This document shows, in pieces, positions 17,359 through 60,833 of a DNA stretch of 64,000 bases. Below the pieces are notes generated by a model. It was not told where the DNA came from. It worked only from the letters and a program-made list of their open reading frames with translations, and ran no database searches. The stretch is from Thermoplasmata archaeon. Its GTDB lineage: Archaea; Thermoplasmatota; E2; JACPAO01; JAHFTW01. Within the stretch, counting starts at the first letter, position 1; each line of letters opens with the position of its first letter. The position numbers and the translations under genes are program-made. Location: the NCBI GenBank assembly GCA_034667725.1, contig JAXDQS010000001.1, positions 64,001 through 128,000 on the forward strand. Reading direction: 5' to 3'.

Positions 17359-18753
17359 CTACTCGTCCGCGACGTCCAGCACCGGGGTCGGGACCGCCGG
17401 CTTCTGGAGGTTGCCCGTCTTGGTGGTCTTGACGTAGACGCTGGGCTTCTTGAGGACGAACTCGTCCAGGAAGGCGCTCCAGAAGGTCAGGGTCTGGAAC
17501 ATCATGTAGGGGCCCAAGAGCGGGAGGGCGAGCCATTCCCGGAGGTCGTGGCGGACGCCGTCGCGGCGGTCCTGGAGCCACATGCACAGCCAGGCCACGA
17601 ACGGGGCGGCGGAGAAGACGGTCCAGCCCCACATGTCGCCCGGGATGAAGGTCGAGGTGTCGACGCCCATCTGGCCGAGCAGGAACAGCGCGGGGCTGAG
17701 GAGGAACACGATGGGCACGAGGACGTAGGCCAGCGTGTGGTACAGGTCGAGCTTGGCGCCGAGGTGGACGTGCTCCATGCCGTGGACGCGGCCGATGTAG
17801 CGCTTGGTGACCTGCATCCAGCCGCGGCCCCAGCGGCGGCGCTGCGCCCACCAGGCGGACAGCTGGGCGGGGTTCTCCTCCAGGGTGCGGATCTCGGGGT
17901 CGACCAGGATCTGGCCGCCGGCCTCGTGGATCTTGATGCTGAAGTCGATGTCCTCGACCAGGATCTCCTCGTCGAAGGCGCCGAGGCGCTGGAACACCTC
18001 GCGGCGGAAGAACGCCTGGCCGCCGCCGAAGAAGGTGAAGCCGCCGACGACGTCGCGCATGTAGATGTCGCCGCGCTCGATGACGTCGCGCTCGAGCTTG
18101 GTGAGGGCGGCGAGGACGGACTCGTGCTGGTTGATGCCGACGGCGCGGCCCTTGACGCACACCACGCCCGGGTTGGCCAGGAAGTGCTGCACGGCGCGCT
18201 TGACGGCGCCGGGCTCCAGCTCGTGGTCGGCGTCCAGCGACACCAGGATCTCGCCGGTGCACTGCGACAGGCCGAAGTTGCACGCCGCCGCCTTGCCGCC
18301 GCGCTTGTCGTCGCGCTCGACGGCGACGAAGCGGGCGTCCTTGCGGGCGGCGGCCTGGATGAGCGGGCCGGTGAGGTCGGTGGAGCGCTTCTCGTAGACG
18401 TAGACGAAGCGGATGCGGTCGTGGGGGTAGTCCACCCGTTCCATCGAGGCGATGGTGCGCGGCAGCACGGCGCCCTCGTTGTAGGCGACGACCAGGACGG
18501 AGACGGTGGGCCACGCGACGCCGTCGGGCTTGGGCGGCGGGGCGGGGCGGCGGCGGAAGGTCGCGAACGCGGCGAGGTAGACGCGGGCGACGACCAGCAC
18601 GAGGCCGACGAAGATGATGGTGCTGACCACGCGCAGGTAGTCGTGGACGTAGAGCGCGGGCACGAGCGCGAACGCGGTGAGCAGGAGGCCGAGCACGACC
18701 TTCACGAGCGCGTCGCGCAGCTTGCCACCGGTGCCTGAGAGGCTGACTTCCAC
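17359..18753 (-). CDS. GT2 processive-type membrane glycosyltransferase
   Basis: VAYNEG, GKAAACN, SLDADH, LVEDID, QRRRW, flanking TM helices; start approximate. Confidence 0.9.
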   Translation of the reverse strand: MEVSLSGTGGKLRDALVKVVLGLLLTAFALVPALYVHDYLRVVSTIIFVGLVLVVARVYLAAFATFRRRPAPPPKPDGVAWPTVSVLVVAYNEGAVLPRTIASMERVDYPHDRIRFVYVYEKRSTDLTGPLIQAAARKDARFVAVERDDKRGGKAAACNFGLSQCTGEILVSLDADHELEPGAVKRAVQHFLANPGVVCVKGRAVGINQHESVLAALTKLERDVIERGDIYMRDVVGGFTFFGGGQAFFRREVFQRLGAFDEEILVEDIDFSIKIHEAGGQILVDPEIRTLEENPAQLSAWWAQRRRWGRGWMQVTKRYIGRVHGMEHVHLGAKLDLYHTLAYVLVPIVFLLSPALFLLGQMGVDTSTFIPGDMWGWTVFSAAPFVAWLCMWLQDRRDGVRHDLREWLALPLLGPYMMFQTLTFWSAFLDEFVLKKPSVYVKTTKTGNLQKPAVPTPVLDVADE

Positions 18754-56026: not shown

Positions 56027-57435
56027 GCCCGTGCCCGCGGGCCGTGCCGTTCGCGCTGGCCGCCGCGTTCCTCGCCCTCCCCGTGCTGGTGCCGCCCGCC
56101 AACGCCTTGGGCGGCGAGGCGCAGCGCGCCATGGTCACCGACGCCGACCTGCGGGGCCCGCTCGTGGCCGCCGACCTGCCGCCTGAGCACGCCGACGCCA
56201 AGCTGACGCTGCGGCTTGAGGCGGCGGCCGCCACCTTCCTGGTGCAAGAGTATCGCTGGACGGCCGGCGCCACCAGCGTCCAGTCGCTCGCCACCCATCC
56301 CGACGACCGCGTCGGCCACGTCGAAGGCGTCGTGGCCACGGGCGCGAGCCGCGACGACGTCGCCTTCACCCTGCTGCCCCTCGCCGAGGGCGCCGCCACC
56401 CTCCAGGTCGTGGCGCCCTGCCTCGGCCTGGCGGCCGCCACCAGCGGCACCGCCACGTTCGTGGACCGCACCGGCGGCGGCCCCAGCCCGCCGCCCGCGC
56501 GCCCCGCGCCATTGGCCGGCAGCCTGGCCGCAGGGGCGTGCCAAGGCACCGCCACCGTGCGCGCCACCGGCTCGTTCCAGTTCTCGCTGTGGAGCCTCGA
56601 CGTCGAAGCCAGCGGCGCCGGCGACGCCGGCACCTACCCCTCCGGCCGGGAGCAGGACGCCCGGGCCCCCGGCGCCCCCTGCGTGGCCGGCTGCGACCTC
56701 GTCAAGCGCCAATCCTACGTCACCGTCGAGAACGGCACCCTGGAGATCACGGGCGTCCCGCTCGCCTCCGCGTTGCTGCACGCCACCGCGCTGCGCGGCC
56801 CCGCCACCAAGCTCGTCCTCGACGAGGGCGAGCCCATCGTGCACGCCGGCGGCCTCACGCTCGACCTGCGCGCCGACAGCGGCCGCGTCCGCGCCGTGGC
56901 CGCCCCCGTCCAGCCGCCCGCCAACCCCGACGCCGTCGTCGCCCAAGGCCCGCTCGCCTGGGGCTGGGGCTACGGCCTGCTTGCCGCCCTCGCCCTCCCG
57001 GCCGTCGCCGTCGGCCTCATCGCCGTCCGCGGCCGCCGCGCCGCGCGCCGGCTCGACGACGCCGAGGCGCTGCTGGAGCAAGGCCTGCCCCACGAGGCCG
57101 CGCGGCTGGCCCGCCCACTATTGCGGCGCGCCCGCCAGCGCGACGAGGCCGCCTTCGTCCTCGTGCAGGCGCTGTGCGACGCCGGCGTGCCCGCCGAGGC
57201 GCGCGCGACCGTCGCGCAAGTGTGGCCGGCCGACCGCCCGGTCGCCGCCTACCTGCGCGCCTACATCGAGGCCGCGCAAGGCCGGCAGGACGCCGCCGTC
57301 CGCGAGCTGGCCGACTGCCTCGCCGCCGCGCCCGACTTCCTGCCGGAGGTCCAGGCCCAGCCCTTGTTCCGCCGCGCCCTGCGATCGCCCGCCCTGGCCC
57401 GCTGGCTGGGGCCGCACAGCCCGGGGTACTCGTGA
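56023..57435 (+). CDS. Single-pass membrane protein with extracellular domain and cytoplasmic TPR-like domain
   Basis: Signal peptide, TM WGWGYGLLAALAL...RGRR, AYLRAYIEAAQGRQDAAVRELADCL. Confidence 0.72.
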   Translation: MSPCPRAVPFALAAAFLALPVLVPPANALGGEAQRAMVTDADLRGPLVAADLPPEHADAKLTLRLEAAAATFLVQEYRWTAGATSVQSLATHPDDRVGHVEGVVATGASRDDVAFTLLPLAEGAATLQVVAPCLGLAAATSGTATFVDRTGGGPSPPPARPAPLAGSLAAGACQGTATVRATGSFQFSLWSLDVEASGAGDAGTYPSGREQDARAPGAPCVAGCDLVKRQSYVTVENGTLEITGVPLASALLHATALRGPATKLVLDEGEPIVHAGGLTLDLRADSGRVRAVAAPVQPPANPDAVVAQGPLAWGWGYGLLAALALPAVAVGLIAVRGRRAARRLDDAEALLEQGLPHEAARLARPLLRRARQRDEAAFVLVQALCDAGVPAEARATVAQVWPADRPVAAYLRAYIEAAQGRQDAAVRELADCLAAAPDFLPEVQAQPLFRRALRSPALARWLGPHSPGYS

Positions 57436-57911
57436 TGGAGCCGGACGCCCGCGCCCGCATCGTCGTCCTGGTCGCCGCCACCCCTGGCCTTTCGCTGCAG
57501 GACCTGGCGCTCGCGATGGGCCTCAGCCGCACCGCCGTCGCCCGCCACACCCGCCGCCTCGCCAAGGACGGCCGCATCCGCCGCATCCGCTCCGGCCGCC
57601 GCGTGCTGCACGTCCCCAACGGCCACGAGGGCAACCCGACCATCCTCGCCGCGATGCGCCAACGCACCGCCCGCATCGTGCTGGAGTCGTTCCGCGCCGA
57701 CCCCCGCCTGCCCGTGCGCGAGCTGGCGCGGCGGCTCGACGTCACGCCGAAGGCCGTCCGCTGGCACGTCAAGCGCTTCCGCGCCGACGGCCTGCTGGAG
57801 GGCGCCGGCATGGAGCGCGACGGCCGCCGCGGCCGCCCCGACGCCGGGCTCGGCGAAGGACTGGAGGCGATGCCGGTGTGGGACCCGGCGGAGCATCCGG
57901 AGCACGGCTGA
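57435..57911 (+). CDS. Tandem winged-helix transcriptional regulator
   Basis: PGLSLQDLALAMGLSRTAVARH..L.KDG and RELARRLDVTPKAVRWHVKRF; translationally coupled. Confidence 0.82.
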   Translation: MEPDARARIVVLVAATPGLSLQDLALAMGLSRTAVARHTRRLAKDGRIRRIRSGRRVLHVPNGHEGNPTILAAMRQRTARIVLESFRADPRLPVRELARRLDVTPKAVRWHVKRFRADGLLEGAGMERDGRRGRPDAGLGEGLEAMPVWDPAEHPEHG

Positions 57912-57924
57912 CGCCGGCCGCCGG

Positions 57925-57966
57925 CTACAGGCTCGCCCGCACCTTCGCCTTGGCGGCTTCCAGGCA
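57925..57966 (-). pseudogene. Orphan alaS-like C-terminal fragment (CLEAAKAKVRASL*)
   Basis: Aligns with the live alaS end FLEQAKRNVAQSLS* (7/13 identical, no gaps). Confidence 0.65.
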
Positions 57967-58022
57967 CTCGCGCGAGGGCGCTCCGCCCCGCGACCCCCTG
58001 AAGGCTCGCGCTGCGGCGCTCG

Positions 58023-60833
58023 CTACGACAGGGACTGGGCGACGTTGCGCTTCGCTTGCTCGAGGAACGCCGGGACCATCGCCGTGTTGGTCGTCGCGCC
58101 CTGCACCATGTCCGGCTTGCCTCCGCCACGGGCTCCGGCCAAGTCCTTGACTTCCTGGAACTTGGCTCGCAGGTCCAACTGGACGTCAGCGGAACGCGCG
58201 AAGATGAACGGGCCTTCCGTCGAAGCCAGCAAGGCCACGACGCCTTCGGGTTGGGTCAATTCGGCAGCGACTTTCTGCAAGGCCGCCGCGGGCAGAATCT
58301 GCACCACGATGCGGAACCGTCCAACCGGGTGGGCGTTCGCGACCGCGGCCTTGCTCTCCAGCTCGGCGAGGCGGGCGTTCAGGGTCTCGAGCTGCTTGCG
58401 CTGCTCCTTCCATTCGCCGAAGAACCGCTTGGCCGCGTTGGGGACCTCGGCGGGCGCCACCTCCATCGCCTCGCCGGCGGAGCGCAGCAGGTCGTCGGTG
58501 GCCTGCCAGCGCTGCACGGCGTAGGGGCCGGCGGCGTACTCGAAGCGCTCGACGCCGTCCTGGACGCGCTCGGTGCGGTACAGCTTGATGGGGCCGACCT
58601 CGTGGGTGGTGTTGCAGTGGGTGCCGCCGCAGTATTCGACGTCGAAGTCCGCGATCTCCACGACGCGCACGTCGCGGCCCTTGGGGATGCCGCCTTGCAG
58701 CAGCGTGAGGCCGTACTTGTTCTCGGCCTCCTCGCGCTTCCACCAGGTCTTGGTGACGGCGCGGCCTTCCAGGACGACCTGGTTGGCAAGCTGCTCGATG
58801 CGCTCCAGCTCCTCCTTGGTGGGGCGCCGGAAGTGGGTCATGTCGACGCGGGCGCAGTCGTGGTACTTCTGGGTGCCCGCCTGCCACGAGTGCATGCCGA
58901 GGACGCGGCGGACGGCCTGGTTCATGATGTGGGTCGCGGTGTGGCTGCGGGTGCAGTCGAGGCGGAACGCCCAATCGACCTCGCCGTGGACGGTGGCGCC
59001 GACGGGGACCGGCTCGCTGACGTGGTGGACCGCGTGGCCGCCGTCCTTGGCGGTCGTGAGGACCTTCACCTTCTTGCCGCCCACCAGGAGCGTACCTTGG
59101 TCGCCGGGCTGGCCGCCGGTCTCCGCGAAGAAGCAGGTCTTGTCCAGGACGACGGCGTGGGCCTTGCCGTCCATGCCGGACCACAGCACCTTGGCGTCGA
59201 ACGCGCGCTGGTCCTGGTGCTTGTAGTACACGAGCTCGGTGGGCGGGACCTGGAGCCGCAGCCCCTTCTCCTTGCCCTTGGCGGCCTTGCTGTGCCGGGC
59301 CGCGACCACCATGTCGAAGTCGTCGGGCACCTCGACCTTGATGCCCATCTGGGCGGCGGCCTCCGCCACCGTGTTCGGGCCGAGGCCGTGGGTGTCGTAG
59401 AGGTCCACCAAATCGTCGGTGGTGAGCGCCTTCTTCTTCTGCAAGGTGCGCTCCACCAGGCGGAGGCCCTTGTCGCGGGAGTCGATGTAGCGCTCGGTCT
59501 CCAGCGCCATGATCTCCATCGCGCGCGGCACGGCGGCCTTGAACTCGGGGAACTCGCCGAGCATCCGCTCCATGTTCCAGGCCACGAGGTCGCCCAAGGG
59601 CTCGCGGATCCCGAGCTGCTCCATGAAGCGGAGCGCGCGGCGGGTCACGAGGCGCATGAGGTAGCCGGCCTTGACGTTGGAGGGCACGATGCCGTCGCCC
59701 ACCATGATGGAGAGGCAGCGCAGGTGGTCGCAGAGCGCGTACATGCTCTCGACCGGGCCCATGATGTCGTTGAGCTCGGCGACGTCGGTCTGGATGCCGT
59801 GCGCGGCGAGCCGCTTGACGACCTCGGCCCGCAGGCCGTCGAGCTTCTGGCCGATGTCCAGGTTGAGGATGCCTTGGACGCGGGCGTGCTCGGTGATGAT
59901 GCGGTTGGCCTTGGCGTCGTCGCGGATGCGGGCGGTGGCGAGGCCCTTGATGCGGCCAATGGTGTCGGGGAACACGGTGTCGTAGGCCGTCGGCGTCCCG
60001 GTCGAGGCCCAGGCCAGGCGCTCCAGGCCCCAGCCGGTGTCGATGATGCGCATGGGCATCCGGCGGTAGCTCTCGCCCTTGATGCTGAACTCGCCGCCCT
60101 CGGCCTCCTCCAGGCACATGAACACCAGGGTCGCGACCTCGAGGCCGCCGGCGAACACCTCGACCGCGGGGCCCGCGTTGCCGCCGCCGTTCCAGGTGCC
60201 TTCCTTGAACGTGATGCGCTTGCCGTCCAGCCCGAGGACCTTGGTCAGGAACTCGACGCCGTAGGCGACGCACTCCTCGGTCCAATACTTCTCGTCGCCG
60301 GGATAGTTGAAGGCGTGGTGGCCCATCATCTCGAAGCACGAGAAGTGGCGCCCGGAGCGGCCGATGTTGGACAGGTCGTTGAGGCGGATGCAGGGCTGCG
60401 ACACCACCAGCGGGTTGGCGGGCGGCGGCACCTCGCCGGAGGTCACGTGGGGCTGGTAGTTCGCGATCGACGCGATGTTGAGGTAGATGTCGTCCCGCCA
60501 GCGGGCGACCACCGGGTTGCGGGGCACGCGCTTGTGGCCCTTGGACTCGAAGAACCGCAGGAACGCCTCGCGCATCTGCGCCACCGACAGCGGCTTGGTG
60601 GTGAGCGGGTTGCCCAGGAAGTCGTACTCGACGCAGTTGGAGTCGCCGCACAAGGTCCGCGCCGCGTCCGTCGTCCAGAACGGGTCGTGGCACGTCGGGC
60701 AGATGCGGCGCTGGTAGCCGTTCTCGTGGAAGAACCGCAGGTCCAGCATCTTGGCGAGTTCCGGGTTCATCCCGGAGGTCGCCTTAGGCGCAGCGGGAGC
60801 GGAGCCGTCGCGCGGCTCGGGCGACATCACCAT
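58023..60833 (-). CDS. alaS: Alanine--tRNA ligase (archaeal type)
   Basis: N-terminal CPTC..CGD, PVVARWRDD, GRHFSCFEMM, DTGWGLER, HTATH, CGGTH, GGGKP; start 60833, 60827 or 60770. Confidence 0.97.
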   Translation of the reverse strand: MVMSPEPRDGSAPAAPKATSGMNPELAKMLDLRFFHENGYQRRICPTCHDPFWTTDAARTLCGDSNCVEYDFLGNPLTTKPLSVAQMREAFLRFFESKGHKRVPRNPVVARWRDDIYLNIASIANYQPHVTSGEVPPPANPLVVSQPCIRLNDLSNIGRSGRHFSCFEMMGHHAFNYPGDEKYWTEECVAYGVEFLTKVLGLDGKRITFKEGTWNGGGNAGPAVEVFAGGLEVATLVFMCLEEAEGGEFSIKGESYRRMPMRIIDTGWGLERLAWASTGTPTAYDTVFPDTIGRIKGLATARIRDDAKANRIITEHARVQGILNLDIGQKLDGLRAEVVKRLAAHGIQTDVAELNDIMGPVESMYALCDHLRCLSIMVGDGIVPSNVKAGYLMRLVTRRALRFMEQLGIREPLGDLVAWNMERMLGEFPEFKAAVPRAMEIMALETERYIDSRDKGLRLVERTLQKKKALTTDDLVDLYDTHGLGPNTVAEAAAQMGIKVEVPDDFDMVVAARHSKAAKGKEKGLRLQVPPTELVYYKHQDQRAFDAKVLWSGMDGKAHAVVLDKTCFFAETGGQPGDQGTLLVGGKKVKVLTTAKDGGHAVHHVSEPVPVGATVHGEVDWAFRLDCTRSHTATHIMNQAVRRVLGMHSWQAGTQKYHDCARVDMTHFRRPTKEELERIEQLANQVVLEGRAVTKTWWKREEAENKYGLTLLQGGIPKGRDVRVVEIADFDVEYCGGTHCNTTHEVGPIKLYRTERVQDGVERFEYAAGPYAVQRWQATDDLLRSAGEAMEVAPAEVPNAAKRFFGEWKEQRKQLETLNARLAELESKAAVANAHPVGRFRIVVQILPAAALQKVAAELTQPEGVVALLASTEGPFIFARSADVQLDLRAKFQEVKDLAGARGGGKPDMVQGATTNTAMVPAFLEQAKRNVAQSLS

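Follow-up and report, generated by a model that had tools for sequence, protein, structure and literature searches.

An acquired 3' end in the alaS gene of an uncultured Thermoplasmata archaeon, with the former gene end displaced downstream

Genes for aminoacyl-tRNA synthetases are regarded as stable markers that are inherited vertically. In the genome of an uncultured soil archaeon of the Thermoplasmata, a 90%-complete MAG, the gene alaS is followed on its own strand by what resembles a second end of the same gene. This raises the question which of the two ends is the original one, and how the other came to be there. The window analysed here comprises 64,000 nucleotides (positions 64,001 to 128,000 of contig JAXDQS010000001.1, assembly GCA_034667725.1), and positions given without a contig name refer to it.

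The gene alaS (58026-60770, minus strand) encodes an archaeal-type AlaRS of 915 amino acids with the Pfam domains tRNA-synt_2c, tRNA_SAD and DHHA1. Its TAG stop codon (58023-58025, minus strand) is followed by a GC-rich linker of 53 nt with one imperfect hairpin (57970-58022, minus strand) and then by the orphan end, which consists of 14 codons plus TAG (57925-57969, minus strand) and is out of frame with alaS (frame +2 relative to the gene). A convergent gene for an HTH-domain protein (56538-57911, plus strand), mentioned as context only, has its stop 13 nt from that of the orphan. This layout agrees with a preliminary description of the locus, whose distance of 56 bp behind the alaS stop counts to a Cys codon. 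The host-typical codons of the orphan (13 of 14 end in G or C) and the palindrome CTCGCGCGAG at the linker/orphan junction (57967-57976) were likewise found as described there. The 53 nt between the two tails contain no ORF. A scan for terminators and promoters yielded none in the spacer behind alaS, and an Rfam scan of the window yielded a single tRNA and nothing else.

The preliminary description had recognized the orphan by its colinearity with the live alaS end (7 of 13 residues identical). This argument failed, as the BLOSUM62 score of 26 ranks 1276 among 2949 gene ends, which is the median of the null distribution, and 45% of 14,745 mismatched tail/downstream pairs reach or pass it. A clear result was obtained when the orphan was compared with the AlaRS C-termini of relatives. 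AlaRS proteins of the same genus and from the databases end with the canonical motif that the orphan carries. The last 30 amino acids of the two closest orthologues (L002 and L003) score 67 and 64 against the region downstream of alaS, in both cases rank 1 of 2949 gene ends (null maximum 46 and 45). At the nucleotide level, 40 of 49 positions (82%) are identical between the orphan and the live 3' end of L003, which matches the divergence level of the gene body. The homology may run about 6-8 nt further, to approximately position 57977, with a 1-nt indel in comparison to the orphan of the related genome G007. Judged by the sequences of the orthologues, and not by its similarity to the live tail, the orphan is to be regarded as a real alaS tail. 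These data show that the last 14 codons of the native gene were pushed downstream, where they survive as a non-coding relic.

It is the live end that deviates. In the native part of alaS (codons 1-815; 58326-60770, minus strand; GC3 0.98), 72-82% of the amino acids are identical to same-genus orthologues, with a nucleotide identity of 0.74-0.91. The last approximately 100 codons of the live gene reach 32-49% and 0.44-0.63, respectively, versus all relatives, and the amino acid identity drops from about 80% to 45-49% some 100-110 codons before the gene end. GC3 has its maximum-likelihood change point behind codon 815, where it declines from 0.982 to 0.820 (Fisher p=3.6e-9), and with respect to the size of this drop alaS is fourth among 456 long genes. 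The segment behind this point (codons 816-915; 58026-58325, minus strand) encodes the live C-terminal DHHA1/C-Ala region. The closest relative in all searches was P0013, a metagenomic protein fragment with the source tag ERR1041385 from a cluster with a single member, which was detected in an exhaustive HMMER search and is 72-73% identical to the variant tail. A donor was not found; the best matches were 54% in a word-indexed search of 5.8 billion proteins, 50% in 197 genomes of the class and at most 56%, over partial stretches, in metagenome contigs. The live alaS end is compositionally and phylogenetically foreign. The present alaS is a chimera, in which codons 1-815 are native and codons 816-915 were acquired from another lineage together with the 53-nt hairpin linker.

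The different histories of body and tail are also evident from the trees. The tails group as (G007,(G000,P0013)), with support values of 95/95 and 100/98, where G000 is the genome under study. In the body tree, G007 clusters with G006 (100/99), and a grouping of G000 with G007 is rejected by the gene bodies (AU p=5.9e-5). The body of P0013 is 76-77% identical to L003 and L007 versus 70% to G000, and its tail is 72% identical to that of G000 versus 40-47% to the others. In at least three species, alaS ends of one variant clade are joined to gene bodies that are not sisters. Long-branch attraction may play a part in the variant-tail clade, because this clade sits on long branches.

Displaced canonical alaS ends are present in four genomes of two genera (G000, G007, G017 and G042), with three different junctions among them. 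In G007, the GC3 break lies 71 codons before the gene end (0.966 before it, 0.606 behind it), and the gene is followed by a hairpin linker of approximately 113 nt and a canonical orphan of 30 amino acids scoring 138. In both G017 and G042, a 98-nt linker is followed by an orphan of 52 amino acids. Between these two genomes, the last 19 alaS codons plus the linker are 96-98% identical, versus about 76-80% in the flanks. The comparison reveals three divergence levels, which fit neither of two one-step models: a cassette bringing along the 34 codons upstream of the conserved block, or a duplication of the native target.

The linker itself is short and degenerate and has one clear repeat partner only. 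The initial 32 nt (57991-58022) have an exact second copy on another contig of the same genome (C10:487071-487102), starting about 9 nt behind the stop of another gene. This copy continues into a 21-nt hairpin module, which is also present in the alaS linker of G007 and of which a degenerate remnant is left in the alaS linker of G000. Because of the exact 32-nt repeat and the hairpin module common to the C10 continuation and the G007 linker, the alaS linker is counted as a degenerate member of a family of gene-end hairpin modules. The resemblance to the linkers of the atpB array, on which the preliminary description had relied, could not be maintained (score 18, equalled by 47% of real downstream regions). 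In comparison to shuffled sequences, the fold of linker plus tail had z values of +0.86 (DNA with flanks) and of -0.87, -0.40 and +0.88 (RNA; linker -0.87), and the alaS block of G042, with z -1.35, was not distinct either. At alaS, the linker lacks an antisense arm that would match the target (p about 0.97-0.99); the same test was significant at 2 of 15 young loci, where the arm matches the 5' end of the repeat. No pair of terminal inverted repeats was seen at the alaS locus, and the modules are internal hairpins.

That the same process might act throughout the genome had been proposed from the alaS and atpB loci. A permutation-controlled scan of gene tails against their own downstream regions did reveal further genes with orphan tails: 16 gene ends score at least 58 (null maximum 57), and about 15 of the high-scoring loci exhibit a clean succession of tail, hairpin linker and tail copy. 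More than 15 different genes have compact spacers of 34-113 nt, and the flanking direct repeats vary from 29 to 95 nt. Of the 65 nt that distinguish the tail copies, 50 are in codon position 3, and the codon differences are synonymous in 46 and non-synonymous in 12 cases (p=8e-13). As the differences are mostly synonymous, both copies must have diverged as working gene ends in different lineages. Tandem arrays occur at C3:517509 and at atpB, where the end of this ATPase-subunit gene and two further tail copies (5289-5661, minus strand; scan score 70) are separated by hairpin linkers of about 85 nt and repeat with a tandem period of 143 nt. Some tRNAs probably show the arrangement of tail, hairpin linker and tail copy, too. 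Orphan-like matches located kilobases downstream of genes were also observed; these resemble tandem paralogues. At alaS, the live and the orphan copy are far more diverged than the copies at the young loci, and the layout is the same. We infer that alaS is an older, partly decayed and phylogenetically resolved case of a genome-wide process at gene ends. The central proposal of the preliminary description, namely a replaced alaS 3' end, a displaced old end and a genome-wide process, is therefore supported.

The best explanation, which we regard as probable, is a horizontal replacement of the alaS 3' end by a small gene-less module that is spread by recombination. The incoming unit would have consisted of the replacement alaS 3' end and the hairpin linker, without a gene of its own. 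On the left, it may have been joined by homologous recombination within the highly conserved block that immediately precedes codon 816. On the right, where the linker has its 3' end, the join would have been illegitimate or mediated by a short homology arm, for which an orphan tail that the donor allele already carried could have served. Overall, the process would be analogous to a homing-type 3'-end replacement without an element-encoded nuclease, and alaS would be one instance of a process that has left scars at 15 or more further genes and probably at some tRNAs.

A further-reaching reading is put forward tentatively, as its chances appear slightly less than even. The variant alaS end and its linker might together constitute a protein-less, long-lived selfish module that moves between archaeal species, as part of a homing-like family which invades dozens of housekeeping genes and tRNAs. 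The same essential gene would then have been re-invaded repeatedly, with three different junctions in four genomes. The gene would stay functional since a working end is supplied, and the displaced tails would be used as homology arms. The driver might be an undiscovered trans-acting enzyme or host recombination provoked by the hairpins. The 90%-complete MAG yielded neither a nuclease nor a mobilising enzyme, and searches for TnpB, Y1 transposase, reverse transcriptase, Cas1 and Piwi found none of them; PF01797 and PF07282 had no match there and did match in control genomes. Neither a cassette-free allele nor an excision joint was detected among the contigs examined.

A different origin of the scar would be an integrative element (virus or plasmid) of the integrase type for which the alaS 3' end was the attachment site. 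Such an element would have brought along a copy of this end and later lost its interior down to 53 nt. The 3' ends of tRNA and protein genes are classical attachment sites, and repeats of 29-95 nt, as observed here, fall in the range of archaeal att duplications. The targets also appear to include the 3' ends of tRNAs as well as those of protein genes, and a precedent exists in e14, which is located between icd and the displaced fragment icdC (PMC13626634). Nevertheless, this origin is unlikely. No integrase is encoded near alaS, and the sole match to tyrosine recombinases (PF00589) in the MAG is weak and on a different contig from alaS (C10:27530-28006). The spacers at the more than 15 genes mentioned above are compact. 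In G017 and G042, the linker and the last 19 codons are conserved far better than the flanks (about 78%), and therefore the small form itself is shared and is not a random deletion remnant. Furthermore, viral contigs contained no relative of the variant tail.

If the alaS 3' end had been duplicated locally in tandem and the copies had then diverged in place, without any horizontal transfer, this would account for the colinearity of the live and orphan tails and would have a counterpart in the arrays at atpB and C3:517509. This reading is very improbable for alaS, though, as the untranslated orphan has stayed orthologue-like and the translated copy is the outlier. The divergent stretch comprises 100 codons versus 14 in the orphan and begins with a sharp GC3 break, and the clade formed by the tails conflicts with the body tree. 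At the young loci, 79% of the differences are synonymous, whereas the free decay of an orphan would, by our estimate, give about 60% non-synonymous ones.

Also very improbable is an artefact of assembly or binning, i.e. a wrong join between strain variants or between two loci that have the 32-nt repeat in common. The genome is a MAG, and the Logan unitig graph does break at a 31-mer repeat beside the alaS stop, with a loose end leading to the C10 gene. A random mis-join, however, would not place an alaS tail beside alaS, and three further MAGs, with differing sequences and junctions, have this layout too, which makes four independent MAGs in all. The orphan/linker junction lies within one contig at a depth of 11.2 versus 11.4 for alaS. 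Logan contigs of a source-like run bridge the neighbouring gene, the orphan and the linker (57400-58023) as well as the linker and alaS (57994-58689), in both cases without differences. Finally, a frame rich in Ala, Lys and Leu that mimics a tail by chance within GC-rich spacer DNA would explain why the similarity of live tail and orphan is at the null median, but this negligible option is refuted by the first rank of the orthologue tails well above the null maximum, the nucleotide identity to the live end of L003 and the longer orphan of G007.

The replacement of the alaS 3' end has consequences beyond this locus. In several species, the C-terminal domain of AlaRS does not share the history of the remaining gene, and gene-end replacement at alaS can mislead phylogenies and quality checks of MAGs. 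The findings point to recombination by which essential genes have their ends rewritten and yet stay intact. Should the small hairpin modules be the agents, they would represent a homing-like class of mobile DNA without a gene of its own, whose choice of sites and spread in archaea become testable. The displaced tails are dated 'fossils' of former gene ends and useful for tracing transfer between uncultured lineages.

Among known systems, some small elements do not fit. For PATEs derived from IS200/IS605 or for REP/RAYT, neither a Y1 (HUH) transposase nor TnpB was found in the 90%-complete MAG, and insertion without target duplication would be expected in place of the flanking direct repeats of 29-95 nt. 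A MITE would be expected to produce short target-site duplications of fixed length, and the repeats vary from 29 to 95 nt. Restriction-modification units insert with a long, variable target duplication and without a mobility gene (PMC2853133). They share with the present loci direct repeats that are tens of bases long and vary in length, the overlap with gene 3' ends and the lack of a transposase. In contrast to the non-coding hairpin module at alaS, these units insert kilobases of cargo genes (PMC2853133), and at alaS a stretch was substituted, not simply duplicated. A join that is homologous at one end and illegitimate at the other is shared with homology-facilitated illegitimate recombination (PMC3240628).

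In the C-terminal displacement of rhs, cdiA and T6SS effector genes, new 3' ends are likewise reported to recombine through a conserved core, and old ends to pile up as orphans (PMC2935791, PMC5361080). Those ends are polymorphic toxin tips under diversifying selection and are accompanied by immunity genes, whereas alaS is a housekeeping gene that gained no cargo; it encodes AlaRS, and no ORF is located behind the new tail. The prophage e14 of E. coli K-12 is a 15-kb element at icd/icdC that encodes an integrase of its own and has one target only. It supplies a working 3' end to a housekeeping gene and leaves a displaced pseudogene fragment with mostly synonymous differences (PMC13626634). A displaced 3' fragment at the far end is found at alaS as well; the archaeal case differs by its tiny spacer without an integrase gene between the repeats and by its many targets.

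The mobile endonuclease ORFs of fungal mitochondria, which bring a foreign C-terminus to atp6, atp9, cox2 and nad3 of Glomus and to atp6 of Allomyces, are similar in that an inserted C-terminal part is followed by the native C*-terminal copy downstream (PMC3630166). There, too, the native copy groups with its relatives in trees, the inserted part is placed elsewhere, and the differences from relatives are largely synonymous (PMC3630166). In these fungi a LAGLIDADG or GIY-YIG ORF lies between the two tails, where alaS has no ORF. WHO homing elements at FBA1 of the yeasts Torulaspora and Lachancea also build up arrays and leave 5' and 3' gene parts with discordant trees and unequal divergence (PMC7282813). 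The gene parts are 99% versus 85% identical at FBA1 (PMC7282813), and body and tail are about 80% versus 47% identical (amino acids) at alaS. WHO elements are kilobases long and encode their own endonuclease; behind the new alaS tails lie 53-113 nt of hairpin DNA without an ORF, no endonuclease gene separates the new from the old tail, and a nuclease was not detected in the 90%-complete MAG. Yeasts are the hosts in the one case and archaea in the other, where many different genes are hit. What alaS has in common with homing is a replaced 3' end, a displaced old end and discordant phylogenies of its 5' and 3' parts.

The source genome is an archaeal MAG of 2.32 Mb (71% GC, 26 contigs, about 90% complete), whose nearest database proteins are labeled Thermoplasmatota or Thermoplasmata and originate from soil metagenomes. 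The gene alaS (915 aa; Pfam tRNA-synt_2c, tRNA_SAD and DHHA1) is located at 58026-60770 on the minus strand, with its stop codon TAG at 58023-58025. On the same strand follow a GC-rich linker of 53 nt (57970-58022) and an orphan coding stretch of 14 codons plus TAG (57925-57969), which lies in frame +2 relative to alaS. Both are contained in the 111-nt spacer between alaS and a converging HTH-domain gene on the plus strand, which ends at 57911. An artefact as the origin of this layout was rejected, because two Logan contigs of a source-like run, one spanning 57400-58023 (HTH-domain neighbour, orphan and linker) and the other 57994-58689 (linker into alaS), showed 0 differences and matching depth (11.2 and 11.4), and the same layout, with other sequences, is present in 3 further MAGs. 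The break between the Logan contigs is confined to a 31-mer repeat, of which the alternative branch leads to a locus on contig C10 of the same genome.

The canonical motif …ECLEAAKAKV… of the orphan forms the C-terminal end of AlaRS in 19 relatives, as revealed by the comparison that the preliminary description had suggested, and it closes 10 of 10 AlaRS matches in the database. When the 30 C-terminal residues of the two closest orthologues were compared with the region downstream of alaS, scores of 67 and 64 were obtained (rank 1 of 2949; null maxima 46 and 45). At the DNA level, the orphan matches the live 3' end of the relatives' entry L003 at 40 of 49 positions, which corresponds to the divergence of the gene body, and 13 of the 14 codons end with G or C. 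Judged from these sequence comparisons, the orphan is the ancestral alaS end. The 7/13 match between live tail and orphan, on which the displacement had originally been based, is no evidence alone (score 26, rank 1276; 45% of the null as high). Likewise, the resemblance claimed between this linker and those of the atpB array did not hold up, as its score of 18 is matched by 47% of real downstream regions.

The live end has a different history. Whereas the body of the AlaRS is 72-82% identical to proteins of the same genus, its last 100-110 residues or so are only 32-49% identical to each of them; most of these proteins share 61-81% among themselves over this stretch, with L009 and L012 as exceptions. 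The nucleotide identity to L002 and L003 decreases from 0.74-0.91 to 0.44-0.63 at the live end. GC3 amounts to 0.96-1.00 in all 45-codon bins up to codon 810 and to 0.78-0.84 thereafter. The maximum-likelihood change point after codon 815 (window position about 58325; 0.982 to 0.820, Fisher p=3.6e-9) coincides exactly with the position at which the protein ceases to track L002, and by its 3' GC3 drop alaS ranks 4th among 456 long genes of this genome. These breaks in identity and composition indicate that the live end is foreign. The searches brought up no donor: the best match reached 54% among 5.8 billion proteins and 50% when 197 genomes of the class were searched; no relatives were found in viral contigs, and those in metagenome contigs comprised partial stretches of at most 56%.

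An exhaustive HMMER search yielded one metagenomic AlaRS fragment, P0013 (292 aa), which is 72-73% identical across all 100 residues. Its body has more in common with L003 and L007 (76-77%) than with the source genome (70%), whereas its tail shares 72% with the tail of the source genome and 40-47% with the remaining tails; in both proteins, divergence from the canonical proteins begins at the same position. In a tree of the last 100 residues, which included 18 canonical tails from the whole family, the two formed a pair (support 100/98) that was joined by the relative G007 (95/95; 95/91 on 61 columns), apart from the canonical tails. In the body tree, G006 is the sister of G007 (100/99), and forcing G007 together with the source genome cost 67 log-likelihood units (AU p=5.9e-5). 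Body and tail of alaS thus appear phylogenetically discordant, with long-branch attraction as a caveat due to the long branches of the variant tails. Neither the GC3 breaks nor the shared derived motifs depend on the tree.

In G007, GC3 of alaS drops from 0.966 to 0.606 71 codons before the end (LR 76). The stop codon is followed by a linker of about 113 nt consisting of GC hairpins and by a canonical orphan of 30 aa, which begins within the conserved GGGKPDF motif and scores 138; its sister G006 has a canonical alaS end and no orphan. In G017 and G042, which belong to a different genus, a 98-nt linker and a 52-aa orphan follow the stop codon, and the loop of the linker hairpin carries a GAGCG-N-AGCGAG motif that also occurs in several linkers of the source genome. 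Since the junctions differ (14 codons before the end in the source genome, 30 in G007, 52 in G017 and G042), the alaS hits represent at least three separate events. Between G017 and G042, the last 19 codons and the linker differ at 4/57 and 2/98 nt, respectively, whereas gene body, 34 upstream codons and orphan differ by about 20-26%; the orphan differences fall on codon positions 1, 2 and 3 as 3, 3 and 32. The respective entries (L033, L034 and L035) show adjacent divergence levels of 2-7% (last 19 codons and linker), about 19% (live upstream codons) and about 24% (orphan, nearly all synonymous). This pattern is not accounted for by any single-step model. Repeated replacement at an already occupied site is suspected here. 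No orphan was detected within 1.45 kb of alaS in the other 16 relatives with readable downstream DNA (scores at most 46); the genomes compared are MAGs, and kin among them are not independent. In alaS of L002 (G009) and L007 (G012), GC3 declines less strongly at 55 and 40 codons before the end (LR 19 and 16), with no orphan visible; these drops may be older 3'-end replacements with decayed relics.

The supposition that such replacements are genome-wide was borne out by a scan of 2949 ORF ends, picked by a GC3 rule and not by a gene caller, in which the last 30 aa were compared with the 400 nt following the same gene, read in the three forward frames. 16 gene ends scored at least 58, while 14,745 pairs of tails with downstream regions of other genes reached a maximum of 57. 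About 15 are clean, consisting of the tail, a hairpin linker of 34-113 nt and a second, near-identical copy of the tail that has a stop codon of its own. Their targets include a second class II aaRS, both PolD subunits, Cdc6/Orc1, glutamate dehydrogenase, an ATPase subunit and metabolic genes. The direct repeats (29-95 nt) end between -10 and +15 nt from the stop codon; where they end short of it, the final residues and the stop codon come from the linker. The linkers are mosaics of a few hairpin modules with 5-10 copies apiece. An untranslated copy decaying freely is expected to accumulate mostly non-synonymous differences. Between the tail copies, 65 nt differ, of which 50 occupy third codon positions, and at the codon level 46 differences are synonymous and 12 non-synonymous (binomial p=8e-13); therefore, the copies diverged as working gene ends in different lineages. 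Among the 456 long genes, GC3 drops with LR≥10 occurred 45 times in the last 20-150 codons versus 8 times in an internal control. This excess would fit a large number of old 3'-end replacements, and general gene-end effects may contribute.

Several further observations were made outside the window. At C3:223698-223795 and C5:182433-182473, hairpin modules of the family lie between direct repeats that, judged by eye, resemble tRNA 3' ends; the repeats are T-arm-like, and the first site also has a T-rich trailer of about 30 nt. Gene-end duplication may accordingly not be limited to protein genes. At C3:517509-517700, behind the end of a gene without Pfam family lie at least 2 further units of a 55-nt linker and a 62-nt tail copy, an array form akin to that at atpB. 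A second, AT-richer repeat family with hairpins on GATTCCACAGA…TCTGTGGAATC-like arms occurs in about 4 tandem copies behind one gene (C7:~17700-18060) and in single copies in native DNA just past displaced tails (C10:187722, C3:550371 and C3:515560); this family may represent native terminators or a different element. Tail-like copies with 67-85% identity located 0.3-1.2 kb downstream of several genes (C5:47051, C2:3096, C6:54118, C4:38392 and others) might represent tandem paralogues or else larger, cargo-bearing cassettes.

The first 32 nt of the alaS linker are an exact copy of a stretch about 9 nt past the stop codon of another gene at the end of contig C10. There (C10:487060-487170), a gene without Pfam family is followed by the 32-mer and two GC hairpins, and the contig stops 68 nt further on, too early to show a displaced tail. 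One hairpin module continuing the C10 copy is also present in the alaS linker of G007. Set against the C10 copy, the alaS linker seems to have undergone an internal deletion that left the module as a degenerate remnant; the linker folds into one imperfect hairpin, no better than shuffles. An antisense copy of the target is absent from the alaS linker, and among 15 young loci an antisense arm was significant at just 2.

The change at alaS is a substitution: a foreign end of about 100 codons and the linker now occupy the place of native codons 816-901 or so, which were lost, and the last 14 native codons were kept. The left crossover would have occurred by homologous recombination within the conserved block directly upstream, and the right join would lie at the 3' end of the linker. 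This join might have been illegitimate, in the manner of homology-facilitated illegitimate recombination (PMC3240628); alternatively, an orphan already carried by the donor allele might have acted as a short arm on the right-hand side, following the model put forward for WHO elements (PMC7282813). The variable direct repeats at the young loci would result if a small circle integrated by a Campbell-type single crossover, which at alaS would require an additional deletion. Once formed, the allele could be spread by ordinary recombination. The 90%-complete MAG yielded no TnpB, Y1 transposase, reverse transcriptase, Cas1 or Piwi, and a single weak match to a tyrosine recombinase.

Among the known systems closest in behaviour are the WHO elements at FBA1 (PMC7282813), fungal mitochondrial mORFs with an inserted C-terminus, e14 at icd/icdC, Rhs-type C-terminal displacement and 'insertion with long and variable target duplication'. 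In outcome the alaS case matches all five, in that a new end stands in place of the old one, the old end is displaced, and the histories are discordant. It nevertheless lacks what defines each of them, be it a nuclease or integrase encoded by the element, a toxin tip or cargo genes.
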